Assembly (NCBI GenBank): GCA_000989185.1
Contig: LBNX01000002.1
Coordinates: 358,012-422,011 of the forward strand
Origin: a candidate division TM6 bacterium GW2011_GWF2_28_16
GTDB lineage: Bacteria > Babelota > Babeliae > Babelales > UASB340
Length of the DNA stretch: 64,000 nt
Direction of reading: 5' to 3'
This document shows, one piece after another, positions 2,940 to 60,836 of the stretch. The translations under genes were made by a program, and so were the position numbers. The notes under the pieces were generated by a model. That model had not been told where the DNA came from. It searched no databases and worked only from the letters and a program-made list of their open reading frames with translations. Numbering within the stretch: the stretch's first letter is position 1; each line of letters starts with the position of its first letter.

Positions 2940-3842
2940 ATGAACAGAAGTTTAATATCAGTAGTTCTTGGCTCTTATAACAGATACGATTTTTTAAAAC
3001 TAACAATAGATTCTGTGCGTAAAGAATTAGTTGATATCCCACACGAAATTATTGTAGTAGATGGTGGTTCTACAGATGGTGTTGTTAATTGGTTAATAAA
3101 ACAAAAAGATATAATTACTATATTGCAGCACAACAGGGGAATTTGGCGGGGTAAAAGTATAGAAAAAAGATCGTGGGGGTATTTTATGAACTTGGGCTTT
3201 CGCGCTAGTAATTCAAAATATGTATGCATGATTAGTGATGATTGTTTACTTTTGCCTGGTGCAATTAAAAATGGTCTTAAGTTATTTGAAGAACAATTAA
3301 ATAATAATCAAAAAATTGGCGCTGTTGCGTTTTATGCTCGTGAATGGAATAAAGAAACCAATTATTGTGTGCGTTACACTGTAGGTAAAAAATTATACGT
3401 AAATCATGGCATTTATTTAAAGCAGGCGCTTTGTGATGTTAATTTTATAAACGAAGATGATTACTTTTTTTATAATGCAGATTCAGATTTGTGCTTAAAA
3501 ATGTGGCAACTGGGGTATAAAATTATAGATTCAAAAGAATCTTTTGTAGAGCATTATCCGCATGCTAATATAAAAATACGTTCGCAAAATCATGAAAAAT
3601 ATTTACAAGATGCTGAAGTTTTTTTAAAGAATTGGAAAGATGTTTTTTATGATGGAACAAAAGAATCTCTTGGATTTGCAAGTTATATAAAGCATGAAGA
3701 TGTTTTTAGAACAGGCGATAAATATAAAAATTTATATTTAAAAAATTATTTAACTAATCCAGGGTTATTTATTCCTGAGGTGAAGAGAATAATCAAAAGA
3801 TTTATAAACTTTTGCTTATTTCTAGTCTTAAATCTTTTTTAG
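2940..3842 (+). CDS. Glycosyltransferase family 2
   Basis: ISVVLGSYNRYDFLKLTIDSV...VVDGGSTDG N-terminal GT-A signature and an SDD acidic motif. The 3' end overlaps the convergent ABC exporter by 41 nt. Confidence 0.8.
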   Translation: MNRSLISVVLGSYNRYDFLKLTIDSVRKELVDIPHEIIVVDGGSTDGVVNWLIKQKDIITILQHNRGIWRGKSIEKRSWGYFMNLGFRASNSKYVCMISDDCLLLPGAIKNGLKLFEEQLNNNQKIGAVAFYAREWNKETNYCVRYTVGKKLYVNHGIYLKQALCDVNFINEDDYFFYNADSDLCLKMWQLGYKIIDSKESFVEHYPHANIKIRSQNHEKYLQDAEVFLKNWKDVFYDGTKESLGFASYIKHEDVFRTGDKYKNLYLKNYLTNPGLFIPEVKRIIKRFINFCLFLVLNLF

Positions 3843-9720: not shown

Positions 9721-11730
9721 TTAATTAACACTTAATCTTTGATACGCATAAGTTAAAATATCAGGATCAAAACCTTCGTTTTTGATTAGGTCTAATGCAA
9801 TCTTTGAATAAGATATACCTTCTTTAAAATCATATGGGTAATAAAATGAGCCATCTGATTTTTTTATTGCAGAAACCATGTAGTTTATAATTTCATGGTT
9901 AGTATCATTTTCTAAATTTGTTAAATCTTTAAAATGTGTGGACAGTAGGTATAGAGTGTTATCAAAATCGGCTAGTTTTCTTGCTATGCCATAAGCTGCT
10001 GCAGAACCTTCTTCAGGATTTGTGCCAGTAAAAATTTCGTCCATAATAAAGAATGCAAATTGTTGTTCTTTTAAATTTAATATTGACTGTAAAAGTTTTA
10101 AGGCTCTATCCATTTCAGCTTGAAAAAGAGATTTATCTCCTGTTGCGTCTGTTATATTTAAATATGTATTTAAAATAGTAAATGGTGTAAAAGCCATAAC
10201 ATTTGCAGGAGCAATTCCAATTGTTTGAGCCATGAGTGTAGAAGCAGTAATGGCTTTTAATATTGTTGATTTACCTGCTGCATTTGGTCCTGTAACTAAA
10301 ATTTTACTGTTTGATATTCCCAATTCTAAATTATTGGTTACAACTGTTTTGGGATTTAGGATAGGGTGCCAGAAGTTTTCTATTTTTAGAAATGGTTTTA
10401 ATGCATTTTCTCTATAAGTCACAAAGCAATATCTTGCATTTTCATTACTAATATGTTCTTTAAATAGTTTTGTGATAGATATATAGCTATCTATTTTTGC
10501 GATCAATTTATAATTTTTTAAAAAGTTCGCTTTTAAATTTTTGATTAATTCAAAAGAAGCAAAAATATTTCCTTTATGAGATATCAATGATGGAGAGTCT
10601 GCTTTAAATGTATTTTTATTTAAAATGTTTAGCAGTTTTTTATTTTGATTATTTTTTTCCAAATTTAACTTTATATTTGTTGCTTCTGGCAATAATAAAA
10701 GAAGTTTTGTATCGTTAATAATTAAATTGTTAATGTTTTTTATAGCTTGAATATATCTGCTTGTATTGATCATTCTTTGTTGAATATTATTAGAAGCATC
10801 GAGAATGCTTTTTATTATTGTGTTGTACATTTCTCTAGACAAAAACAAGCCAAATCCAAATCCCAATGCAGCTGCTGGAAGTTGAATTGCCGGCTTATCT
10901 ATCTTGAATGCGGCTGCAAGACTAGAGTTTCCATAATAATTTTCTCCAAAGTTATTCGTAGCACTTATAAAAAACCCTGGACAAAGTAGTGGTGCTGTTA
11001 ATGCCATTATTGAACCAGTAATTAATTGAAATGATAGTGCAGTTCCTAGTGCAGTTGGGCTTGTATTTAATTGATTAAACCCTGGCAATTTAAAATATAT
11101 TAAATTTTTTAGAAAATTTTCAAACATTTTATCAAATGGTTTCCAGAATGATAAAAAATCGTTTTCATATAATTTTATTATTTTTAGATTTTGATTAATA
11201 TTTTCAAATAATGTTTCGTTATTTAATAATGTATGTATTATATCTTGTCTCTTTTTTAAAAGCGTAATATTTGTTGTTGGATTAAAAAGAATTTTTGCTA
11301 ATTTAATACGTCCAAATTTTGTTTCTGTTTTATCTATAAAATGGAAAATACTATTGTCTTTTGTTGTTTCTGAGCTATTAAATAGGCATAAATCTTTTGC
11401 GAGCGTTTCGTTTGATATATTATTGCTTAGTGATTTACTATATTTCTGTTGTAGTTCGAAAATTAATTTATAACATTCGTAATCTGTTAATTTTGGAATT
11501 TCGATTTTATTTTTATTTTTTTTATCTTCTTCTATTATGATTTTATCAGAATTATTTTCAGGTTTGATTATTGATGGCATGAAAAGTTTTTCAATTGAAT
11601 GATATATGTTTTTTGTTTGAGTGTTTGATTGTGTATCATTGTTATTTAATGTAGATGTATCTGGAAATAAAAGAAAACTTTGAATCGTAAATGTGAATAA
11701 AAAGAGTATTGATAGTTTTTTATTTAACAT
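9721..11730 (-). CDS. MutS-family protein (core domain III plus ATPase domain V) with an N-terminal signal sequence and internal TM segments; no mismatch-binding domain
   Basis: Domain III-like FIDKTETKFGRIKLAKILFNPTTNITLLKKRQDII. Walker A GPNAAGKST, SLFQAEM, Walker B FIMDEIFTGTNPEEG, STHF. Hydrophobic N-terminus MLNKKLSILFLFTFTIQSFLLF and central hydrophobic stretches. Confidence 0.8.
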   Translation of the reverse strand: MLNKKLSILFLFTFTIQSFLLFPDTSTLNNNDTQSNTQTKNIYHSIEKLFMPSIIKPENNSDKIIIEEDKKNKNKIEIPKLTDYECYKLIFELQQKYSKSLSNNISNETLAKDLCLFNSSETTKDNSIFHFIDKTETKFGRIKLAKILFNPTTNITLLKKRQDIIHTLLNNETLFENINQNLKIIKLYENDFLSFWKPFDKMFENFLKNLIYFKLPGFNQLNTSPTALGTALSFQLITGSIMALTAPLLCPGFFISATNNFGENYYGNSSLAAAFKIDKPAIQLPAAALGFGFGLFLSREMYNTIIKSILDASNNIQQRMINTSRYIQAIKNINNLIINDTKLLLLLPEATNIKLNLEKNNQNKKLLNILNKNTFKADSPSLISHKGNIFASFELIKNLKANFLKNYKLIAKIDSYISITKLFKEHISNENARYCFVTYRENALKPFLKIENFWHPILNPKTVVTNNLELGISNSKILVTGPNAAGKSTILKAITASTLMAQTIGIAPANVMAFTPFTILNTYLNITDATGDKSLFQAEMDRALKLLQSILNLKEQQFAFFIMDEIFTGTNPEEGSAAAYGIARKLADFDNTLYLLSTHFKDLTNLENDTNHEIINYMVSAIKKSDGSFYYPYDFKEGISYSKIALDLIKNEGFDPDILTYAYQRLSVN

Positions 11731-28299: not shown

Positions 28300-28307
28300 A
28301 TTTAGGA

Positions 28308-28339
28308 CTAGATCCCGGATCGGGGTCCGGGATGACAAG
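28308..28339 (+). repeat. GC-rich hairpin element, family H (CCGG-arm variant)
   Basis: CTAG-ATCCCGGA-TCGGGG-TCCGGGAT-GACAAG, a perfect 8-bp stem, in the 67-nt gap between the 992-aa gene and the OMP gene. Confidence 0.85.
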
Positions 28340-28366
28340 TGCCCGTAAGAATAACAGGAACTGTTT

Positions 28367-29635
28367 ATGAAAAATTTAAAAATTATTTTACTTGGCCTAA
28401 GTTTTTCAACTTTGGCTTTGGCATATCCACCTTCAAATTTTTTTACGCCATATAATATTAATTGGAGGTTGCCAGATGTTAAAGATAAAAAGTTTTTATT
28501 TAACATAAATTTTGAACATGGTAATACAAATGATTGTAGAAATGGTGGCGAAGATAAAGCACCGGTTTTAAGATTATATAATGCAACAGAATCTAGTTTA
28601 GCCATGCTTTTGGGTGCTCAAGTTGGTAGTGATATTTATAATAAAGCAAATTTATTATTACCTGCATATGCTCCGGCTACAGATGATGGAGTTAGAGGTT
28701 GCTTTGAACTTGATGGTAAGTTTGAACAAACAAATATTAATTTACTCGCTAAATATAAATTACCTATAGAAACTATACCCGGCAATTTTGATTTACTTGT
28801 TCATGTACCAATGACACATATGGTTGTTAAAGATGTTGTATGGCGAGATTTAACAAAAAATGTTTTAGCATGCGATTTTGATGTTCATGCACAATTAACA
28901 GATGATATTGTAAACAATGTAAATACACTTGGTGATGGATTAAATCTAGAAGGCTTTGATAGAATGGGATTTGGTGATTTAGTTGTTATGTTGTGGTGGT
29001 ATAACGATTATAAACAGCTAAAAGAGCATCTTAAAAATGTAAGACTAAATTTTAGATTAGGGCTTTCGGCTCCAACAGGTCATAAAATAAACGAAGATAA
29101 ATCTATTGATTTTCCATTTGGAAATGACGGTTCTTGGGGTGTTCCATTGGCTGGTGCAATAGACTTAGATTTTATACATGCTTTTAAGTTGGGTTTAGAA
29201 TTTGAAATGTTATTTTTGTTTGATAACACAAGAATTCGAAGATTAAAAACAGATAGTAATCAAACAGATTATTTATTATTGCACAAAGGCAATGCAACAT
29301 TAAGCCAAGGTATGACTTGGAAGTTTAATTTATTTATACAAAAGAAATTTGGAAATTATATTACAGCAAAAATAGCATATCAATTTTTGAAAAAAGATTC
29401 AGACAAGCTTACTGCAGAATCTAATAATTTTGATTATAGCATTATAAATACAGCACAGAAATTACAAGAGTGGATGACTCAAGACTTTATATTTAAACTA
29501 GATATAGATTTATTTAAAGAATCTAGTAAATATGCATTTAAGCCACAGTTTAGTATGTTTGCTAAAGTACCGGTTACAGGGAAACGTATTGTAAGTGCAT
29601 ATACTTTTGGCGGGCAACTAGGATTTAATTTTTAA
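28367..29635 (+). CDS. Outer-membrane beta-barrel protein (porin/anchor-like)
   Basis: Signal peptide ...STLALA/YPPS. Alternating amphipathic strands in the C-terminal half. C-terminal ...GGQLGFNF with terminal Phe, typical of BAM substrates. Confidence 0.65.
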   Translation: MKNLKIILLGLSFSTLALAYPPSNFFTPYNINWRLPDVKDKKFLFNINFEHGNTNDCRNGGEDKAPVLRLYNATESSLAMLLGAQVGSDIYNKANLLLPAYAPATDDGVRGCFELDGKFEQTNINLLAKYKLPIETIPGNFDLLVHVPMTHMVVKDVVWRDLTKNVLACDFDVHAQLTDDIVNNVNTLGDGLNLEGFDRMGFGDLVVMLWWYNDYKQLKEHLKNVRLNFRLGLSAPTGHKINEDKSIDFPFGNDGSWGVPLAGAIDLDFIHAFKLGLEFEMLFLFDNTRIRRLKTDSNQTDYLLLHKGNATLSQGMTWKFNLFIQKKFGNYITAKIAYQFLKKDSDKLTAESNNFDYSIINTAQKLQEWMTQDFIFKLDIDLFKESSKYAFKPQFSMFAKVPVTGKRIVSAYTFGGQLGFNF

Positions 29636-29659
29636 AGAATAAATTAAAAGATGAATTGT

Positions 29660-29800
29660 GCGTATGGCGATAGCCATACGCTACCCCAGTGTTGCCATGC
29701 CTGAAGGCAGGCGTATTTGATTTAGTAACGAAATAATATTTTTTTAATAAGCTTACGTTTATGTAAGCGTTATTGAGGTAGAGGAAGGCTATCGCCTTCC
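29660..29800 (+). mobile_element. MITE-like GC-rich composite palindromic element, family M, copy A (~141 bp)
   Basis: Terminal inverted repeats GCGTATGGCGATAGCCATACGCTACC and GGTAGAGGAAGGCTATCGCCTTCC. Each terminus is itself a hairpin. Two internal hairpins flank an AT-rich core. Collinear with the reverse complement of 60358..60502. Confidence 0.8.
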
Positions 29801-29812
29801 CGTTAAAATTGT

Positions 29813-31051
29813 ATGAACATTCTTTATATAATTACAAAATTAGAACTTGGTGGCGCACAAAAAGTTTGTATATCGCTTTTAGATTATTTCCAAAAAAATA
29901 GTAATTTTGCTGGCTTAATATCTGGCGATCAGGGCGTATTAGTAGATCAAATAAAAGATTTAGATAATATTTTTTTATTACCAGAGTTTAAGCGTGAAGT
30001 GGGAATAAAAAATATATTTAACGAATTTAAATTATTTTTTAAATTAATAAAAATAATAAAAGAAAATAAGAAAAAATATAAAAATTTAATTGTACATACT
30101 CACAGTACAAAAGCAGGTATTTTTGGGCGCTGGGCAGCATTTTTTGCTGGTGTAAAAAACAGAGTGCACACTGTGCATGGTTTTGGTTTTCATGAAGGGC
30201 AAAATAAATTTGTATGGCTTATTATTTATTTGCTTGAATTTTTTACGGCTTTTATTACAACAAAATTTATTTGTGTGTCTAATTTTGATTTAAATACTGG
30301 TTCAAGATTATTGCCATTTTTTAAAAAGCGTTCAAGTGTAATTAACGCTGCAGTAGATTATGAAAAATTTTATTTAGAAAAAAAAGAAATTAAAAATTTT
30401 AATAAAAATTTAAATCAAAAATTTATAATAGGCACAGTGTCTTGTTTTAAGCCTCAAAAAAATTTAATAGACTTATTGCAAGCTTTTAAAAAAGTATTAA
30501 ATAATATAACAAGTGGAGAGCGTCACAGGTTTTGTCATACTGAACTTGCTGTGCCCGACGAAGCTTTACGCGAAGTCTGGGATTCAGCATCCAGAAATAT
30601 AAAATTCAATAATATTCTTTTGCAAATTATAGGTGATGGTGAACAACGTGAATATTTACAAGATTTTATTTTAAAAAATAATTTACAAAATAATATAGAG
30701 CTTTTGGGTTGGCAAGATAACGTTGCAAAATTTATGCATAATTGGGATTTGTTTGCTTTAAGCTCTTTATGGGAAGGTTTGCCTTGTGTAGTTGTTGAAG
30801 CTCGATTGGCAAAATTACCTGTTATTGCTTATAAAATATCTGGAATTCCAGAAGTTATATTCGATAATAAAAATGGTTTTTTGATAGATTCAGGGAACTG
30901 GGAAGTGCTGGCTGAAAAAATTGAATTTATTATAAAAGATAATATTAATCGAGAAAAATTGTCTAATTATAATGATAATTTATCTATGTTTAATAATAAT
31001 TACATGATTAACGAACATTTACTGCTTTACAAAAGCGTTCTTTATACATAA
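29813..31051 (+). CDS. Glycosyltransferase family 4 (GT-B) carrying an in-frame repeat-derived insertion
   Basis: ILYIITKLELGGAQK N-terminus and C-terminal WEGLPCVVVEARLAKLPVIAY (E-x7-E region). The GC-rich segment 30515..30594 encodes SGERHRFCHTELAVPDEALREVWDSASR in the interdomain region. Confidence 0.8.
   Translation: MNILYIITKLELGGAQKVCISLLDYFQKNSNFAGLISGDQGVLVDQIKDLDNIFLLPEFKREVGIKNIFNEFKLFFKLIKIIKENKKKYKNLIVHTHSTKAGIFGRWAAFFAGVKNRVHTVHGFGFHEGQNKFVWLIIYLLEFFTAFITTKFICVSNFDLNTGSRLLPFFKKRSSVINAAVDYEKFYLEKKEIKNFNKNLNQKFIIGTVSCFKPQKNLIDLLQAFKKVLNNITSGERHRFCHTELAVPDEALREVWDSASRNIKFNNILLQIIGDGEQREYLQDFILKNNLQNNIELLGWQDNVAKFMHNWDLFALSSLWEGLPCVVVEARLAKLPVIAYKISGIPEVIFDNKNGFLIDSGNWEVLAEKIEFIIKDNINREKLSNYNDNLSMFNNNYMINEHLLLYKSVLYT
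30532..30594 (-). repeat. Family H hairpin (TGAA-arm variant), degenerate and split by a 33-nt GC-rich insert; lies inside the GT4 CDS
   Basis: TTGTCATACTGAACTTG [33 nt] ATTCAGCATCCAG. Compare the reverse complement of copy 58889..58918, TTGTCATCCTGAACTTG-ATTCAGGATCCAG. Total 63 nt, which is 21 codons. Confidence 0.75.
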
Positions 31052-39301: not shown

Positions 39302-40504
39302 ATGAAGAATTTAAAAAATAAATTTGAACGCGTTAGTCAAAAGTTTGTTAATAAAAAAGAATATTATAAAAAGATAATAGATAAGTGGCGTTTAAAAAAT
39401 GATCTTAGCATGTATAATTCAGCCAATAGTTTATATGAAAAAACAGAGGCTTTATTTAAAGAAATTACAGAAAATTTTACAGCTACGGTAGAAGGACAGC
39501 TTAAGCCTGAATATATAAATAAAAAAATAAAAGAATTTAAACGTGTTAGTAAAAAGTTGAACGATATAACAAAACCTGTTTGGCAGCAATGGATCGAAGC
39601 AATAGTTTTTGCCGGTTCTCTTGTTTTTGTATTACGTACATATGTTTTTGGTCTTTATCATGTGCCTACAGGTTCTGCAGAACCTACAATATTGGTTGGA
39701 GACAGAATTTGGGGAAATAAAACGGTTTATTTTTTTAATAAAATAAAACATGGAGATAGTGTAATTTTTGATAATCCAAGATTTATTTATGACAAATCAA
39801 GTAAAATAAATTATTTTTGGCAAAAATATATTGGGCTGCCTGTTCCATTATTGGGATTGTCTGCTGGTCCAGACAATTGGGTAAAAAGAGTTATAGCTAT
39901 TCCTGGAGATACTATAGAAGGTAGAGTTGAAAATAATAGAACAGTTATTTACAGAAATGGCGTTAAACTTGATGAAACAGCTTATGTAAATAAATATCCA
40001 TTAATTTGTTTAAGAAAGACTACAGGATTTTTACCATTTAATTCTATAGGTATGATTAATATACCGGGCTTTCTTGTTAGTGTTAAAAAACTTGGTTTTT
40101 ATACTTATGATCCAGAAAAATCTTATGACAATCAGCCATTTTATAGCATGAAAGAGAGCGAGATTAAAAAAGATTTGTATGGTTTGCCTATATTAAGAGA
40201 AGCATATTCACCAAGTTATATTTATGATTATGAAACTGGTGATATTGAGCGAAGTGTTGATAACTTTGGACCAATAAGAATACCTGAAGGCAAGTATTGG
40301 GTTATGGGCGATAGCCGTAAAAATAGTGAAGACAGTAGATTTTGGAGTTTGCTGGATGAACATTTAATTCATGGTAGAGCTAGCTTTGTGATTTATTCTG
40401 TAGATAGTGAAGAAGCTCTTTGGATATTTGAACTTATTAAGCATCCAATAGATTTTTGGTTTAAAAATATACGTTACAATAGATTTTTAAAGTGGATTAA
40501 ATAA
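39302..40504 (+). CDS. lepB: Signal peptidase I
   Basis: Catalytic Ser box TGSAEPTILVGD, Lys box VKRVIAIPGD, and GDSRKNSEDSRFW. Confidence 0.85.
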   Translation: MKNLKNKFERVSQKFVNKKEYYKKIIDKWRLKNDLSMYNSANSLYEKTEALFKEITENFTATVEGQLKPEYINKKIKEFKRVSKKLNDITKPVWQQWIEAIVFAGSLVFVLRTYVFGLYHVPTGSAEPTILVGDRIWGNKTVYFFNKIKHGDSVIFDNPRFIYDKSSKINYFWQKYIGLPVPLLGLSAGPDNWVKRVIAIPGDTIEGRVENNRTVIYRNGVKLDETAYVNKYPLICLRKTTGFLPFNSIGMINIPGFLVSVKKLGFYTYDPEKSYDNQPFYSMKESEIKKDLYGLPILREAYSPSYIYDYETGDIERSVDNFGPIRIPEGKYWVMGDSRKNSEDSRFWSLLDEHLIHGRASFVIYSVDSEEALWIFELIKHPIDFWFKNIRYNRFLKWIK

Positions 40505-52203: not shown

Positions 52204-52246
52204 ATATACATGACTGAATACAAAAATAAATGGGTCAATAATTATT

Positions 52247-53509
52247 ATGTTAGATAAAAATAAATTATATTTACAGATTAAAAAAAATGCGCAAAAACTT
52301 TTTAGTGATTTTACTCAAGAATTTGATTTAGCTAAAAAAAAGTGGCAAGAAATTTCTTGTGATATTAATTTTAAAAATAAAGTTGAATTTTCTCATGCTA
52401 GTTTTTTAACTCCAACTTGGCTTGGTAATTTAAATGATAAATTTAAGATCGATAATAAAATTTTTAATTATTCTATATTATCTGTAGATGGTTCTCAGGT
52501 TTATCCAGATCGTAATATATCTGGAGCAAATTGTTGCTTAATAAATATCGGTTCATGTTTAATTAAATATAATAATACAGGCAGCTCCGTCAAAATAGGC
52601 TCTGAGCCACTTTTATTTTTGTTAGATGATTTATTTGAACATGCTATCCCGAGTAAGGACCCGGGATCTAGTGATCTTGTTGATTTAAAGCGAGAAGAAC
52701 TTGAACTTTTAAACTTGTTAAATATAACTTTAGAACAAAATATAGATATAGCATTTGTAGATGGTACTGTAATATTTTGGTTTTTAGAAAGTAAGCCAGA
52801 AGAAGTAAAAAATTTATTTTTAAATTTATATTTAAATATTTTACAAAAATTTTATGATCAAAAAAAAATAATTGCAGGTTTTATAAGCTTTCCCAAAAGC
52901 AAAGAGCTTATTAATTTAATTAAAATTGGCTTGTGTAAGTACGATTACGCTGACTGTATTGCTTGTTATAAAATTTATAATAATAAAGCGTTTGATAAAG
53001 TGGATTCGACTACGCAGCAAGCTGCTGCGCTCACCACGAACGCCCCGTTCGCCCTGAGCGAAGTCGAAGGGGTTGCCATTTCTAAGAATGCTCAGCCCTG
53101 TATGCTTGTTGATAATTTAATAGATACTAAAATATTAAGAAATTTTTTAAATATAAATGAGCGAACTACAGTTTTTTTTAGTAATTCAAAAATTGTAGAT
53201 AGTTATCCAGATTATCTAAAACCCTGTTTTTTTTATTTAAATGCAGGGGTAGAAATTGTACGTATAGAGACTTTTAAATATATTGCACAAGATGAAAAGT
53301 TAATTAATCTTATTGCAAGCGTAGCTCTTGATCAAATTAATAAGGGGCTTGGTTACCCTGTAACTTTGGCTCAAGCGCACGAAGCTGCAGTTGTAAAAGG
53401 ACCAGATAGAGAGTTTTTTTATAATTTATTACAAAAAGAAGCTCTTGATCAATCACGAAGATTAATTTACTCTCAAAAGAGTATAAAAAAACGTGGCACT
53501 GGGGTATAA
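52247..53509 (+). CDS. NurA-like nuclease domain protein carrying two in-frame repeat insertions
   Basis: YSILSVDGSQVYPDR (NurA Asp motif), IAFVDGTVIFW, C-terminal GYPVTLAQAHEAAVVKGPDREFF. GC-rich inserts at 52643..52671 and about 53003..53075. Confidence 0.6.
   Translation: MLDKNKLYLQIKKNAQKLFSDFTQEFDLAKKKWQEISCDINFKNKVEFSHASFLTPTWLGNLNDKFKIDNKIFNYSILSVDGSQVYPDRNISGANCCLINIGSCLIKYNNTGSSVKIGSEPLLFLLDDLFEHAIPSKDPGSSDLVDLKREELELLNLLNITLEQNIDIAFVDGTVIFWFLESKPEEVKNLFLNLYLNILQKFYDQKKIIAGFISFPKSKELINLIKIGLCKYDYADCIACYKIYNNKAFDKVDSTTQQAAALTTNAPFALSEVEGVAISKNAQPCMLVDNLIDTKILRNFLNINERTTVFFSNSKIVDSYPDYLKPCFFYLNAGVEIVRIETFKYIAQDEKLINLIASVALDQINKGLGYPVTLAQAHEAAVVKGPDREFFYNLLQKEALDQSRRLIYSQKSIKKRGTGV
52643..52671 (-). 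repeat. Family H hairpin (CCGG-arm variant), in frame inside the NurA-like CDS
   Basis: GCT-ATCCCGAG-TAAGGA-CCCGGGAT-CTAG, 7 of 8 stem pairs; encodes AIPSKDPGSS. Confidence 0.8.
53003..53075. repeat. GC-rich palindromic insertion (family G) in frame inside the NurA-like CDS
   Basis: Inverted termini TTCGACTACGC (53005..53015) and GCGAAGTCGAA (53058..53068), 10 of 11 complementary. Internal palindrome CGCAGCA-AGC-TGCTGCG. Encodes DSTTQQAAALTTNAPFALSEVEGVA. Confidence 0.7.
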
Positions 53510-53521
53510 TATTGGGCTTTT

Positions 53522-55474
53522 ATGTTAATAGTAAAAAAATTAAGTTTAAACTTTGGTCAGCAAGTAATTTTTGAAGATATTTCGTTTACTGTAAATTCAA
53601 ACGAACGAATTGGTCTTGTTGGGCGTAATGGTTCTGGAAAAACTACTTTATTAAAAATAATAAGTGATTTTAATCAATCAGGTACAAAAGACTTTGATTC
53701 TGGCCAAATAGAGATATATAAAAATAAAAAAATTGCATACTTGCCACAGCAGGTTATTTTAGAGTCAAAAAAAGATATTTTACACGAAGCGCTAAATAGC
53801 TTTATAACAGATTTGGGTTATTTAGGTGATTTAATTCATGAATATAATGATCTTGAAAATAAAATTAATAGTTTACATAATCACGAAGTAAATAATCTTG
53901 AAAGATATTCGAATTTGCAAATTCTTTTAAACGAGCTTAATTTTGAAAAAAAAGTTTTAGAAACTAAAAAGATTTTATTGGGTTTAGGCTTTAGTGAAAG
54001 TATCTTAAAAGATAGCGTACAAACGCTTTCTGTTGGTTGGAAGATGCGCTTGGTTTTGGCTAAATTGTTATTGCAAAAGGCTGATTTTTATTTATTTGAC
54101 GAACCAACAAACCATTTAGATTTAGTAGCAAAAGATTGGTTTTTAGCATTTTTGCAAAATGCTAACTTTGGTTTTATGTTAGTTTGTCATGATAGATATT
54201 TTTTAGATAAATTATGTTCACAAATTTATGAATTATCTTTAGGCCAATTAAATATTTATACAGGTAATTATTCTAAATATTTGGAACAAAAAGAACATGA
54301 TAAACAACTTTTAGAACAAAAATATATAGAACAACAAAAATATATTAAAAAAGAGATGGCTGTAATAGATCGCTTTAGGGCAAGTGCATCAAGATCTAAT
54401 ATGGCGCAGAGTAAATTAAAAGCATTAGAAAAATTAGAACTTGTAAAAATAGAACCAATGCAAAAAATTGTTAAAATAAAATTTAATAATGTAAAACAGG
54501 CTGGCAAAATAGTTTTGACTGTTAAAAATTTAGCAAAATCTTTTGGTGATAAATTAATTTTTAAAAATGTAAATTTTGAAATTGATCGAGGCGAAAAGGT
54601 TGCAATAGTTGCGCCAAATGGTCAAGGTAAGTCGACTTTATTAAATATGATTATGGAGAATATTCTGTGTGAAGACCCGGGATCTAAAATTATTTTTGGA
54701 CATAATGTTTTTCCGGCATTTTTTGAACAGGATCAAAATAAAACTTTAAATCCAAAAAAAACTATATATCAAGAAGTAGAAGATAGCTGTAAAACAACAG
54801 AACAAAGACAAAAAATTAGGACTATTTTGGGCTCGTTTTTGTTTTCTGGTGATGATATCGAAAAAACTATATCTGTTTTAAGTGGTGGTGAAAAAAATAG
54901 AGTTGCAATGGTAAAGGTTCTTTTGCAAGATGCGAATTTTTTAATATTGGATGAACCTACAAATCATCTTGATATAGAATCAAAAGAAGTACTATTGTCT
55001 GTTCTAAAAGATTATCCTGGGACTATATTATTTGTTTCTCATGATCGTGATTTTTTGAATAATTTATCAACAGCTATAATAGAATTAAAACAAGATTCTA
55101 GCTATAAATATAAAGGTAATTATGATGCATTTTTGGAACAAAAAGATGCACAGCAAAATGTAATCGAAAATGTTAAAAATATAGAATTAAGAGCTAATCA
55201 TATTGAGCATGCATTGTCATCCCGGGCAAGGACCCGGGATCCAGAAATAAAACATTCAAATAATTTCTCCAAAAATGATTATGAAACTCGTAAACAAATA
55301 AGAGCATTAGAAAGTAAGATAGAAAAACAAGAAAAAGAACTTGAACTTTTAACTAAAAAGTTTGAAAATTTAGAATATGGATCTAAAGATTATAATAAAG
55401 TTTTAAATGAAATTAATAAAATAGAAAAAGAGCTAAATGAAAATTTAGCTCTTTGGGAAATTTTAAATAGTTAA
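53522..55474 (+). CDS. ABC-F family ATPase (Uup/YheS-like, C-terminal coiled coil)
   Basis: Two ABC cassettes (GRNGSGKTT / LSVGWKMR / YLFDEPTNHLD; APNGQGKST / LSGGEKNR / LILDEPTNHLD), no TM domain, coiled-coil tail. Contains a family H copy and a half-copy in frame. Confidence 0.9.
   Translation: MLIVKKLSLNFGQQVIFEDISFTVNSNERIGLVGRNGSGKTTLLKIISDFNQSGTKDFDSGQIEIYKNKKIAYLPQQVILESKKDILHEALNSFITDLGYLGDLIHEYNDLENKINSLHNHEVNNLERYSNLQILLNELNFEKKVLETKKILLGLGFSESILKDSVQTLSVGWKMRLVLAKLLLQKADFYLFDEPTNHLDLVAKDWFLAFLQNANFGFMLVCHDRYFLDKLCSQIYELSLGQLNIYTGNYSKYLEQKEHDKQLLEQKYIEQQKYIKKEMAVIDRFRASASRSNMAQSKLKALEKLELVKIEPMQKIVKIKFNNVKQAGKIVLTVKNLAKSFGDKLIFKNVNFEIDRGEKVAIVAPNGQGKSTLLNMIMENILCEDPGSKIIFGHNVFPAFFEQDQNKTLNPKKTIYQEVEDSCKTTEQRQKIRTILGSFLFSGDDIEKTISVLSGGEKNRVAMVKVLLQDANFLILDEPTNHLDIESKEVLLSVLKDYPGTILFVSHDRDFLNNLSTAIIELKQDSSYKYKGNYDAFLEQKDAQQNVIENVKNIELRANHIEHALSSRARTRDPEIKHSNNFSKNDYETRKQIRALESKIEKQEKELELLTKKFENLEYGSKDYNKVLNEINKIEKELNENLALWEILNS
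54672..54686 (-). repeat. Family H half-copy (one arm plus flank) inside the ABC-F CDS
   Basis: AAGACCCGGGATCTA is identical to the 3' half of copy 56623..56652; encodes EDPGS just after the second Walker A. Confidence 0.6.
55214..55244 (-). repeat. Family H hairpin (CCGG-arm variant), in frame inside the ABC-F CDS
   Basis: TTGTC-ATCCCGGG-CAAGGA-CCCGGGAT-CCAG, a perfect stem; encodes LSSRARTRDPE in the linker before the coiled coil. Confidence 0.85.
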
Positions 55475-56601: not shown

Positions 56602-56622
56602 TTTTCACCTATTATTTTATGG

Positions 56623-56652
56623 GGTCATCCCGGGCAAAGACCCGGGATCTAA
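56623..56652 (-). repeat. Family H hairpin (CCGG-arm variant) in the ychF 5' leader / divergent promoter region
   Basis: GGTC-ATCCCGGG-CAAAGA-CCCGGGAT-CTAA, a perfect stem, 22 nt upstream of the ychF start codon. Confidence 0.85.
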
Positions 56653-60273: not shown

Positions 60274-60347
60274 GGCGGCATAGCCAAGTGGTAAGGCAGT
60301 GGTCTGCAAAACCGCGATCCCCGGTTCAATTCCGGGTGCCGCCTCCA
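60274..60347 (+). tRNA. tRNA-Cys (GCA), CCA encoded
   Basis: Folded by hand. Acceptor GGCGGCA/TGCCGCC. Anticodon stem GTGGT/ACCGC with loop CTGCAAA. T arm CCCGG-TTCAATT-CCGGG. Confidence 0.9.
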
Positions 60348-60357
60348 GCCTACGCTC

Positions 60358-60502
60358 AGCAAGGCGATAGCCTTGCTCTACCATAATGATGCCTACATAA
60401 ACGTAGGCTCTAATGATATGAAATAAAAAAATATTTATAATTTAAATTTAAGCCCGCCTTTAGGCGCGGCGATGTTGTGGTAGAGGAGGGCTATCGCCCT
60501 CC
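60358..60502 (-). mobile_element. MITE-like GC-rich composite palindromic element, family M, copy B (~145 bp), inverted relative to copy A
   Basis: Termini AGCAAGGCGATAGCCTTGCTCTACC and GGTAGAGGAGGGCTATCGCCCTCC. Internal hairpins GCCTACATAAACGTAGGC and GCCCGCCTTTAGGCGCGGC. Its reverse complement is collinear with 29660..29800, with compensatory stem changes. Confidence 0.8.
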
Positions 60503-60573
60503 GGCAGTATAATTTTTTTAAAAAAAAGTTGATTATATTTATAAATTGTACATAATTATAACAATTAATGCGT

Positions 60574-60661
60574 GCCGTGGTGGCGGAATTGGTAGACGCA
60601 AGGGACTTAAAATCCCTCGGGTTTTTAACCTGTGCCGGTTCGACTCCGGCCCTCGGCACCA
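60574..60661 (+). tRNA. tRNA-Leu (UAA), long variable arm, CCA encoded
   Basis: GCCGTGG-TG-GCGGAATTGGTAGACGC D region typical of tRNA-Leu. Anticodon loop CTTAAAA. T arm GCCGG-TTCGACT-CCGGC. One U-U mismatch in the acceptor stem (5:68). Confidence 0.85.
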
Positions 60662-60697
60662 GCCGTCGCTCCTTTGGAGCTATGGCTGGCAAGCCAG
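60661..60697 (+). other. Two GC-rich hairpins abutting the tRNA-Leu 3' end (processing/termination structure or a degenerate repeat terminus)
   Basis: AGCCGTCGCTCC-TTT-GGAGCTATGGCT (12-bp stem with 1 mismatch and 1 G.U), then CTGGC-AA-GCCAG. No U-run follows. Confidence 0.4.
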
Positions 60698-60836
60698 TAT
60701 TAGAAAAAAATATTAAAATCTTGACAAAAGAAAATCTTGTAAATAAACATCAATGGTATACTTACGAAACGTTTGTGTTGTTTGTGTGTTGTGTTGATTA
60801 ATTGAGAAATTCAGTTTTGAATTTTAGGAGTTATGT

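Follow-up and report, generated by a model that had tools for sequence, protein, structure and literature searches.

REP dimer-like, GTAG-tagged hairpin repeats in a Dependentiae genome

A hairpin-ended repeat and its tagged termini

Repetitive extragenic palindromic sequences (REPs) of the GTAG-tagged kind have 6–13-bp stems, short loops and an unpaired GTAG (GTRG) tag, and form sub-families with complementary stem residues (Di Nocera et al. 2013, PMC3733652). They occur in dimers that are head-to-head (HH) or tail-to-tail (TT), depending on whether GTAG lies outside or inside, with spacers of 20–100 bp, some of which have complementary ends or two stem-loops, and they sit downstream of genes, between unidirectional or convergent open reading frames (ORFs) (PMC3733652). 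Their mobilization by REP-associated tyrosine transposases (RAYTs), whose genes are flanked by the REPs, has been proposed (PMC3733652), and REPs, REP doublets forming hairpins (REPINs) and bacterial interspersed mosaic elements (BIMEs) have been treated elsewhere (Bertels & Rainey 2011, PMC3116915; Nunvar et al. 2010, PMC2817692). The small AT-rich genomes of Dependentiae have been reported as nearly free of mobile DNA (PMC4378268). Here we describe a repeat, family M, in a 64,000-nt stretch of the candidate division TM6 bacterium GW2011_GWF2_28_16 (contig LBNX01000002.1, positions 358,012 to 422,011; hereafter the window). Homologues of the lineage-specific proteins of the window are annotated as Candidatus Dependentiae or Babeliales.

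Family M is probably, though far from certainly, a palindromic repeat of the REP/REPIN (BIME-like) type, non-coding and non-autonomous, carried by this Dependentiae (TM6/Babeliales) genome. Each end of the element is one REP unit (GGTAG plus hairpin), and together they form a TT dimer whose structured spacer is conserved. An initial annotation of the window had reported two copies in inverted relative orientation that shared seven blocks, and sequence inspection and alignment bore this out: copy A (plus strand) and the reverse complement of copy B are collinear along their entire length, with all seven blocks in common. A third copy, C, which has seven of the seven blocks, was found in another genome (TM6 bacterium UASB340) between convergent genes, at a site that is non-orthologous to the window loci. 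The copies and their parts are as follows (window coordinates unless a related locus, numbered with L, is named).

29660–29800, plus strand: copy A, whole family M element (nhmmer E=1e-42)
29660–29681, plus strand: copy A left terminal hairpin, GCGTATGGC-GATA-GCCATACGC; the opposite strand is the REP body after GGTAG
29681–29685, plus strand: CTACC tag (complement of GGTAG) of the copy A left arm
29694–29712, plus strand: copy A inner hairpin, GCC(A)TGCC-TGAA-GGCAGGC, with a T-rich tract after it; weakly terminator-like
29713–29750, no strand: copy A AT-rich core, 38 nt, 13% G+C
29751–29768, plus strand: copy A inner hairpin, GCTTAC-GTTTAT-GTAAGC, with two pairs changed on both sides
29777–29781, plus strand: GGTAG tag of the copy A right arm
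29783–29800, plus strand: copy A right terminal hairpin, GGAAGGC-TATC-GCCTTCC
60358–60502, minus strand: copy B, whole family M element, inverted relative to A (nhmmer E=6.5e-47)
60358–60377, minus strand: copy B terminal hairpin, AGCAAGGC-GATA-GCCTTGCT (plus-strand letters)
60378–60382, minus strand: copy B tag, CTACC on the plus strand and GGTAG on the minus strand
60391–60408, minus strand: copy B inner hairpin, GCCTAC-ATAAAC-GTAGGC (plus-strand letters), homologue of A 29751–29768
60452–60470, minus strand: copy B inner hairpin, GCCCGCC-TTTA-GGCGCGGC (plus-strand letters), homologue of A 29694–29712
60479–60483, plus strand: GGTAG tag of copy B
60485–60502, plus strand: copy B terminal hairpin, GGAGGGC-TATC-GCCCTCC
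L036 3512–3652, minus strand: copy C, TM6 bacterium UASB340, found by pattern scan

Read tag first, the six termini align without gaps as GGTAG, 0–1 nt, a GC-rich stem of 7–8 bp (8 positions) and a TATC loop; the tag is GGTAG in five of the six and GTTAG in the remaining one. The tags face inward across a spacer of 91 nt in copy A and 96 nt in copy B, which comprises an extension of the arm by 10 nt, two small hairpins that differ from each other, and the AT-rich core. The two termini of each copy are mutual reverse complements, loop (GATA on the left, TATC on the right) and tag included, and over ~30 nt the arms are inverted repeats of each other (GGCGATAGCC-N5-CTACC-N-YARYRWYGC). A 30-nt terminal pattern (GGCGATAGCCNNNNNCTACCNYARYRWYGC) had four matches in the window, which are the four termini, and none in 100 dinucleotide-preserving shuffles. 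The copies also stand out in base composition, as islands of 42% G+C (arms 46–60%, core 13%) in a window of ~28%. A fifth GGCGATAGCC, at 40307, lies inside a signal-peptidase coding sequence and was set aside as a chance match. No ORF was found in the element, as had been claimed; the ORFs that overlap copy B run through tRNA genes and are spurious.

The conserved feature of family M is hairpin structure, not sequence. Across the three full copies, 88.6% of 123 pair cells (41 proposed pairs) were standard pairs, as against 31–44% with slid partners. The compensatory stem changes that had been noted from two copies (e.g., T-A to C-G between the hairpin at 29694–29712 and its copy B homologue) persisted when the third was added, with seven pairs changed on both sides and at least one of these in each of the four local hairpins. 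In the terminal stems of the six termini, 93.8% of positions were paired (33–46% when slid), stem positions 3 and 5 each showed four pair types (AU, GC, CG, UA/UG), and none of 500 shuffles reached the observed covariation score. The long stem that joins the two arms (CTACC... with ...GGTAG) was 72% paired, with zero double changes. Folding z-scores on either strand ranged from −4 to −8 as RNA and from −5 to −6.7 as single-stranded DNA (ssDNA), and the predictions give four separate hairpins or a single long one, the latter being the minimum free energy structure of copy B. RNA fold energies showed no consistent strand preference relative to the orientation of the element. A by-eye check of the AT-rich core for the integration host factor consensus found no such site. 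A main limitation of these comparisons is that the family M sample comprises three copies, or six termini.

Insertion sites, distribution and a sister family

Copies A, B and C and an element of a sister family, M2 (below), are all intergenic and occupy 3' positions: copy A lies between co-directional ORFs, copy B between co-directional tRNAs, copy C between convergent ORFs, and M2 after a tRNA-Leu 3' end. The neighbors in the window are listed here.

28367–29635, plus strand: upstream neighbor of A, a 422-aa Dependentiae-specific protein; no Pfam match, C-terminal ...GFNF, hence outer membrane protein (OMP)-like
29813–31051, plus strand: downstream neighbor of A, a family-4 glycosyltransferase (GT4), an identical protein being encoded on four contigs
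60274–60347, plus strand: tRNA-Cys(GCA), upstream neighbor of B
60574–60661, plus strand: tRNA-Leu(UAA), downstream neighbor of B

Distances to these neighbors agreed with the initial annotation: copy A begins 24 nt past the stop of the OMP-like gene (29635) and ends 12 nt ahead of the GT4 ATG (29813), and copy B begins 10 nt past the end of tRNA-Cys (60347). Related genomes lack the element at both loci. In the window, 177 nt separate the OMP-like stop from the GT4 start, versus 2 nt in L122, 3 nt in L123 and 19 nt in L125, the OMP-like proteins of which are 95%, 69% and 68% identical to that of the window, respectively. Since L122 has a different small palindrome (GATCCCGGGTCAAGCCCGGGAT) at the 5' end of its called GT4 ORF, the copy A site is a hot spot and L122 is not a clean empty site; those of L123 and L125 are clean. 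Likewise, the spacer between tRNA-Cys and tRNA-Leu is 226 nt in the window, whereas that of UASB340 (L129) is 70 nt long and that of L133 81 nt. Judged against the empty site of UASB340, the inserted block at copy B spans ~60356–60512, and directly 3' of it lies a promoter-like T/A tract of tRNA-Leu (60513–60560) that is conserved, also at empty sites. At copy A, the inserted block may extend to ~29654–29812. Because the orthologous sites in relatives are without the element, A and B are lineage-specific insertions and not conserved flanking features, and the third copy at a non-orthologous site likewise speaks against a mere pair of conserved flanks. Insertions of family M occur in either orientation, and at sites unrelated to each other, in two genomes at least.

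Several further observations concern these sites. A TATAAT at the right flank of copy B was considered as an element-borne promoter of tRNA-Leu and rejected, as it has no plausible −35 and the conserved promoter-like tract lies outside the insertion. In L127, the site of copy B (11425–11500) is occupied by an unrelated GC-rich insert of ~70 nt (TACTTCGCCAAGGCTTCCTACTACGCCCCACGTGGCTTCGTAGGACAAGTCGTATGGCACGGCCA), which indicates that the tRNA-Cys 3' flank is a recurrent insertion target. In Logan assemblies, the sequences of the closest relatives break off within tRNA-Cys and tRNA-Leu, just where the region around copy B is bordered (the end of L126, at 3622, and the start of L132), a pattern compatible with fragmentation of short-read assemblies by repeats or tRNA duplicates. 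Copy C lies in an intergenic region (L036 3364–3711) that is a nest of elements, in which an outer inverted repeat (GCAAACTCAATAATTAA, at 3365–3386 and 3679–3700) surrounds both copy C and another GC-rich block with many hairpins (3400–3510); a masked run of N follows from 3735, inside the neighboring hydrolase gene.

Family M appears sparse. The contig of the source genome has two M copies in 71.7 kb and UASB340 has one in 29 kb, all extragenic, and nhmmer searches with profiles for the full element and for its terminal module recovered no further copies from any of the Dependentiae loci that were fetched (~200 kb, about six genomes). A scan of genomes with the pattern GGCGATAGCCNNNNNCTACC (15 fixed bases) was too loose, returning 119 loci, of which only L036 (TM6 UASB340) was real and the other 118 were chance matches in unrelated GC-rich genomes. 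Tighter patterns gave no match in one metagenome scan and one chance match (a contig of 54% G+C) in another; no family M match was found in a scan of viral contigs, nor did blastn of copy B match plasmids and phages. The inner hairpins were not found as independent dispersed repeats. Each pairing of A, B and C was ~72% identical over aligned columns (the MAFFT "mean column identity" of 80% for A versus B is a different measure), and A and B were no more similar to one another than either was to C, though the genome of C has a MiaB that is only 70% identical.

The M2 element has the same plan with different ends:

L129 15270–15545 (UASB340), ~275 bp: M2, adjoining the 3' end of tRNA-Leu(CAG)

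It shares the CTACC/GGTAG arms (CACAGGGCTACC.../...GGTAGCCCTGTG) and the spacer plan of M, and its right arm (GCGATTTTGAGGTAG) is close to that of M (GCGTTATTGAGGTAG). The left terminal hairpin (CCCAGTGC-ATAC-GCACAGGG) abuts CTACC, the inner hairpins are GCCTGC-TTAT-GCAGGC and GCCTGC-ATGA-GCGGGC, and the AT-rich core, at ~170 nt, is longer than that of M. The source genome has no M2 at the orthologous site (L131 13330–13455), so that M2 is an insertion as well. In 170 kb, M and M2 were the only GC-rich inverted-repeat pairs of such architecture 25–450 nt apart. The existence of M2 makes M one member of a small super-family in which the GTAG tag and spacer plan are kept and the terminal hairpin is swapped.

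Comparison with known elements and alternative origins

Family M shares with GTAG-tagged REPs a short GC-rich stem-loop (a 7–8-bp stem and a 4-nt loop), the tag and complementary stem variants. As in REP dimers and REPINs, two inverted units lie within 20–100 bp of each other and the whole can fold as one hairpin, and as in some REP dimers, the ends of the spacer are complementary and small stem-loops lie within it. The extragenic position downstream of genes, in unidirectional or convergent settings, and the lack of a consistent target-site duplication are further likenesses. Family M differs from known REPs in its stem and loop (GGC-TATC-GCC), its long (~91–96 nt) conserved spacer with two different hairpins and an AT-rich core, its low apparent density, the lack of solitary units, the ~72% identity of its copies and the absence of a RAYT from the window and related loci. 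In addition, its host phylum, Dependentiae, is outside the eight phyla covered by PMC3733652, and no paper linking Dependentiae with REP or RAYT was found in the literature searched. The Correia/NEMIS elements of Neisseria and the miniature inverted-repeat transposable elements (MITEs) RUP, ERIC and Nezha are likewise 100–160 bp long, with terminal inverted repeats, an AT-rich center and insertion in either orientation, and are co-transcribed with their neighbors as long RNA hairpins. However, Correia elements have fixed 26-bp terminal inverted repeats and a TA duplication, whereas M has covarying hairpin termini with a GTAG tag and no consistent duplication. Rickettsia palindromic elements (RPEs) are also palindromic repeats that are GC-richer than the AT-rich, reduced genome of their intracellular host bacterium, but they are known for inserting in frame into ORFs, whereas all M copies are intergenic.

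If family M is a REP/REPIN-type repeat, it would spread, or would formerly have spread, as folded ssDNA recognized by an HUH/Y1 RAYT, and the GTAG tag and hairpin would be the recognition determinants, by analogy with characterized REP/RAYT systems. Such a mechanism would be expected to leave no target-site duplication. After insertion 3' of genes, passive co-transcription of the copies is inevitable, and their hairpins may incidentally serve as RNA 3'-end stabilizers or weak terminators.

Several results weigh against this account. Neither a RAYT nor another transposase was detected in the window, in agreement with the initial annotation; Pfam was run on ten unassigned ORFs, of which only PilN and NurA matched, and the other ORFs, judged by eye, are recognizable housekeeping genes. 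The gene lists of ~130 kb of related loci contain no transposase either, with the rest of the genome outside the search. Copy number appears low for a REP family (three M and one M2 in ~200 kb of Dependentiae DNA), and a scan for solitary REP units (GTAG plus a perfect hairpin) matched only the M termini. Since the copies are ~72% identical both within and between genomes, there is no sign of a recent replication burst, which near-identical copies would have indicated, although the sample is small and the point is a weak one. The covariation likewise comes from three copies and six termini, and palindrome maintenance at the DNA level could mimic structural selection. Lastly, a 6-bp direct repeat, AATTGT, surrounds copy A (29654–29659 and 29807–29812) and could be a target-site duplication.

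The initial annotation had left the choice between a MITE, a REP/BIME-like element and a structured RNA. The GTAG-tagged hairpin at every terminus fits the REP/BIME-like option best, while a strict MITE is not supported, given the lack of a consistent duplication, and neither is a discrete RNA, given the symmetry, the insertion in either orientation, the lack of an Rfam match and the absence from orthologous sites. A classical MITE would be a deletion derivative of an insertion sequence (IS), mobilized in trans through binding of a DDE transposase to its ~30-bp terminal inverted repeats, with the internal hairpins incidental, as modeled on Correia/NEMIS, RUP and Nezha. We regard such an origin as unlikely, even though M has ~30-nt inverted-repeat arms and its size (~145 bp), AT-rich center, insertion in either orientation and empty sites in relatives are all typical of MITEs. 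The AATTGT at copy A would also suit it, and at least one IS4 transposase has been reported in a Dependentiae genome (Babela, PMC4378268). However, copy B shows no matching duplication when set against the empty UASB340 site, and none is found at copy C, the boundaries of the elements being uncertain by a few nt. Variable positions covary within one terminus and not across termini, and the stems of one copy differ from each other (GTATGGC versus GAAGGC). This within-terminus covariation points to an enzyme that reads hairpins rather than duplex sequence, and a conserved GTAG tag beside a hairpin is the REP signature (PMC3733652). Moreover, no transposase or parent IS was seen in the window and related loci (~200 kb of Dependentiae DNA).

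A further alternative is a palindrome-associated element (PATE) of the IS200/IS605 type, moved by a TnpA(IS200) that recognizes sub-terminal hairpins. The hairpin termini with conserved structure, the lack of a target-site duplication at copy B and the non-coding nature of M agree with this. In IS200/IS605 elements, the left-end and right-end hairpins are on the same strand and in the same orientation, whereas the M termini are true inverted repeats, loop included, and neither TnpA nor TnpB was seen among the window ORFs, which makes a PATE very improbable. There is a slim chance that M is primarily an RNA element kept for its function, such as a terminator or attenuator, a structure that processes or stabilizes mRNA or tRNA 3' ends, or a small RNA gene. 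All copies are in transcribed positions (after an ORF, after a tRNA and between convergent ORFs), the predicted structure is strong (z = −4 to −8) with compensatory changes, and in A and B, several G-T pairs in the long stem between the arms are on the transcribed strand (by inspection, in two copies only). Directly after the inner hairpin GCCATGCC..GGCAGGC, copy C has T7 and copy A a weaker T-rich tract. Although this hairpin and T-run face the upstream gene in A and C, copy B is inverted and its T-run does not face the upstream tRNA, so any terminator effect is incidental, and no T-runs follow the terminal hairpins. The element has two-fold symmetry and both strands fold equally well; Rfam, searched at E up to 10, matched only two tRNAs above the gathering threshold, the best match to copy A scoring 17 bits against a 70-bit cut-off. 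A required cis-acting RNA would also hardly be so dispensable as to be lacking from orthologous sites in four relatives.

A further scenario, which we hold to be quite improbable, is that the reduced genomes of the obligately intracellular Dependentiae keep a diversified system of GTAG-tagged hairpins (M, M2 and the GTAG/ATAG trailers after tRNA-Leu described below) without a RAYT. The hairpins would then be moved by another enzyme, copied by recombination or template switching, or retained as signals for RNA 3'-end processing or termination in a lineage that is seemingly poor in canonical terminators.

Other small repeats and wider meaning

Another family of hairpins, which are small and GC-rich, (G)ATCCCGGG-loop-CCCGGGAT(C), occurs five times in the window (28305–28346, 52631–52670, 54647–54686, 55204–55246 and 56612–56651) and in L122 (3690–3715). 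Two copies are intergenic and three are in frame, in NurA (...IPSKDPGS...) and ABC-F (...CEDPGSK... and ...RARTRDPE...), and a copy forms the called N-terminus of the GT4 gene in L122. In its behavior, this family resembles the RPEs. The GT4 ORF of the window also contains an in-frame insertion of ~15–28 codons (~30509–30598; TSGERHRFCHTELAVPDEALREVWDSASRN), which the GT4 proteins of L122, L123 and L125 either lack or have in a shorter form. Its DNA includes ACGAAGCTTTACGCGAAGT, which is, bar one extra base, the reverse complement of the ACTTCGCTAAAGCTTCGT found after tRNA genes in L127 and L129; hence, the same small repeat occurs in coding sequence and in tRNA trailers. Inside the NurA ORF (52214–53509), a 67-nt GC-rich block (53007–53073; …QQAAALTTNAPFALSEVEGV…) is probably another in-frame element; NurA is 420–431 aa long in the window versus 381–395 aa in relatives.

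A conserved GC-rich trailer of ~45 nt lies directly 3' of tRNA-Leu genes in several genomes:

Window 60662–60705: tRNA-Leu trailer
L131 13410–13454: tRNA-Leu trailer
L129 11601–11640 and 15546–15590: tRNA-Leu trailers
L133 14050–14299: tRNA-Leu trailer, a tandem triplication with a period of ~135 nt

On the tRNA strand the trailer reads GC..hairpin..TATGGCTGGCAAGCC, and on the other strand GGCTKGCCAGCC-(G/A)TAG-hairpin. It may be a further GTAG-tagged repeat, or a signal for tRNA 3' processing or termination. In the window, tRNA-Cys is followed by 8 nt (GCCTACGC) that match the beginning of the L133 trailer.

These results add Dependentiae, which are parasites of protists, to the lineages with GTAG-tagged, REP dimer-like repeats, a modest extension of a known kind of element. 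Family M and the other small GC-rich elements mark gene 3' ends and tRNA 3' flanks as hot spots of turnover in Dependentiae genomes. Such elements break metagenomic assemblies and distort gene calls, as exemplified by the GT4 N-terminus in L122. If a RAYT is found in these genomes, family M would offer a compact test case for the persistence of REPIN-RAYT systems in reduced genomes; if none exists, it would exemplify REP-like repeats that lack a transposase of their own.

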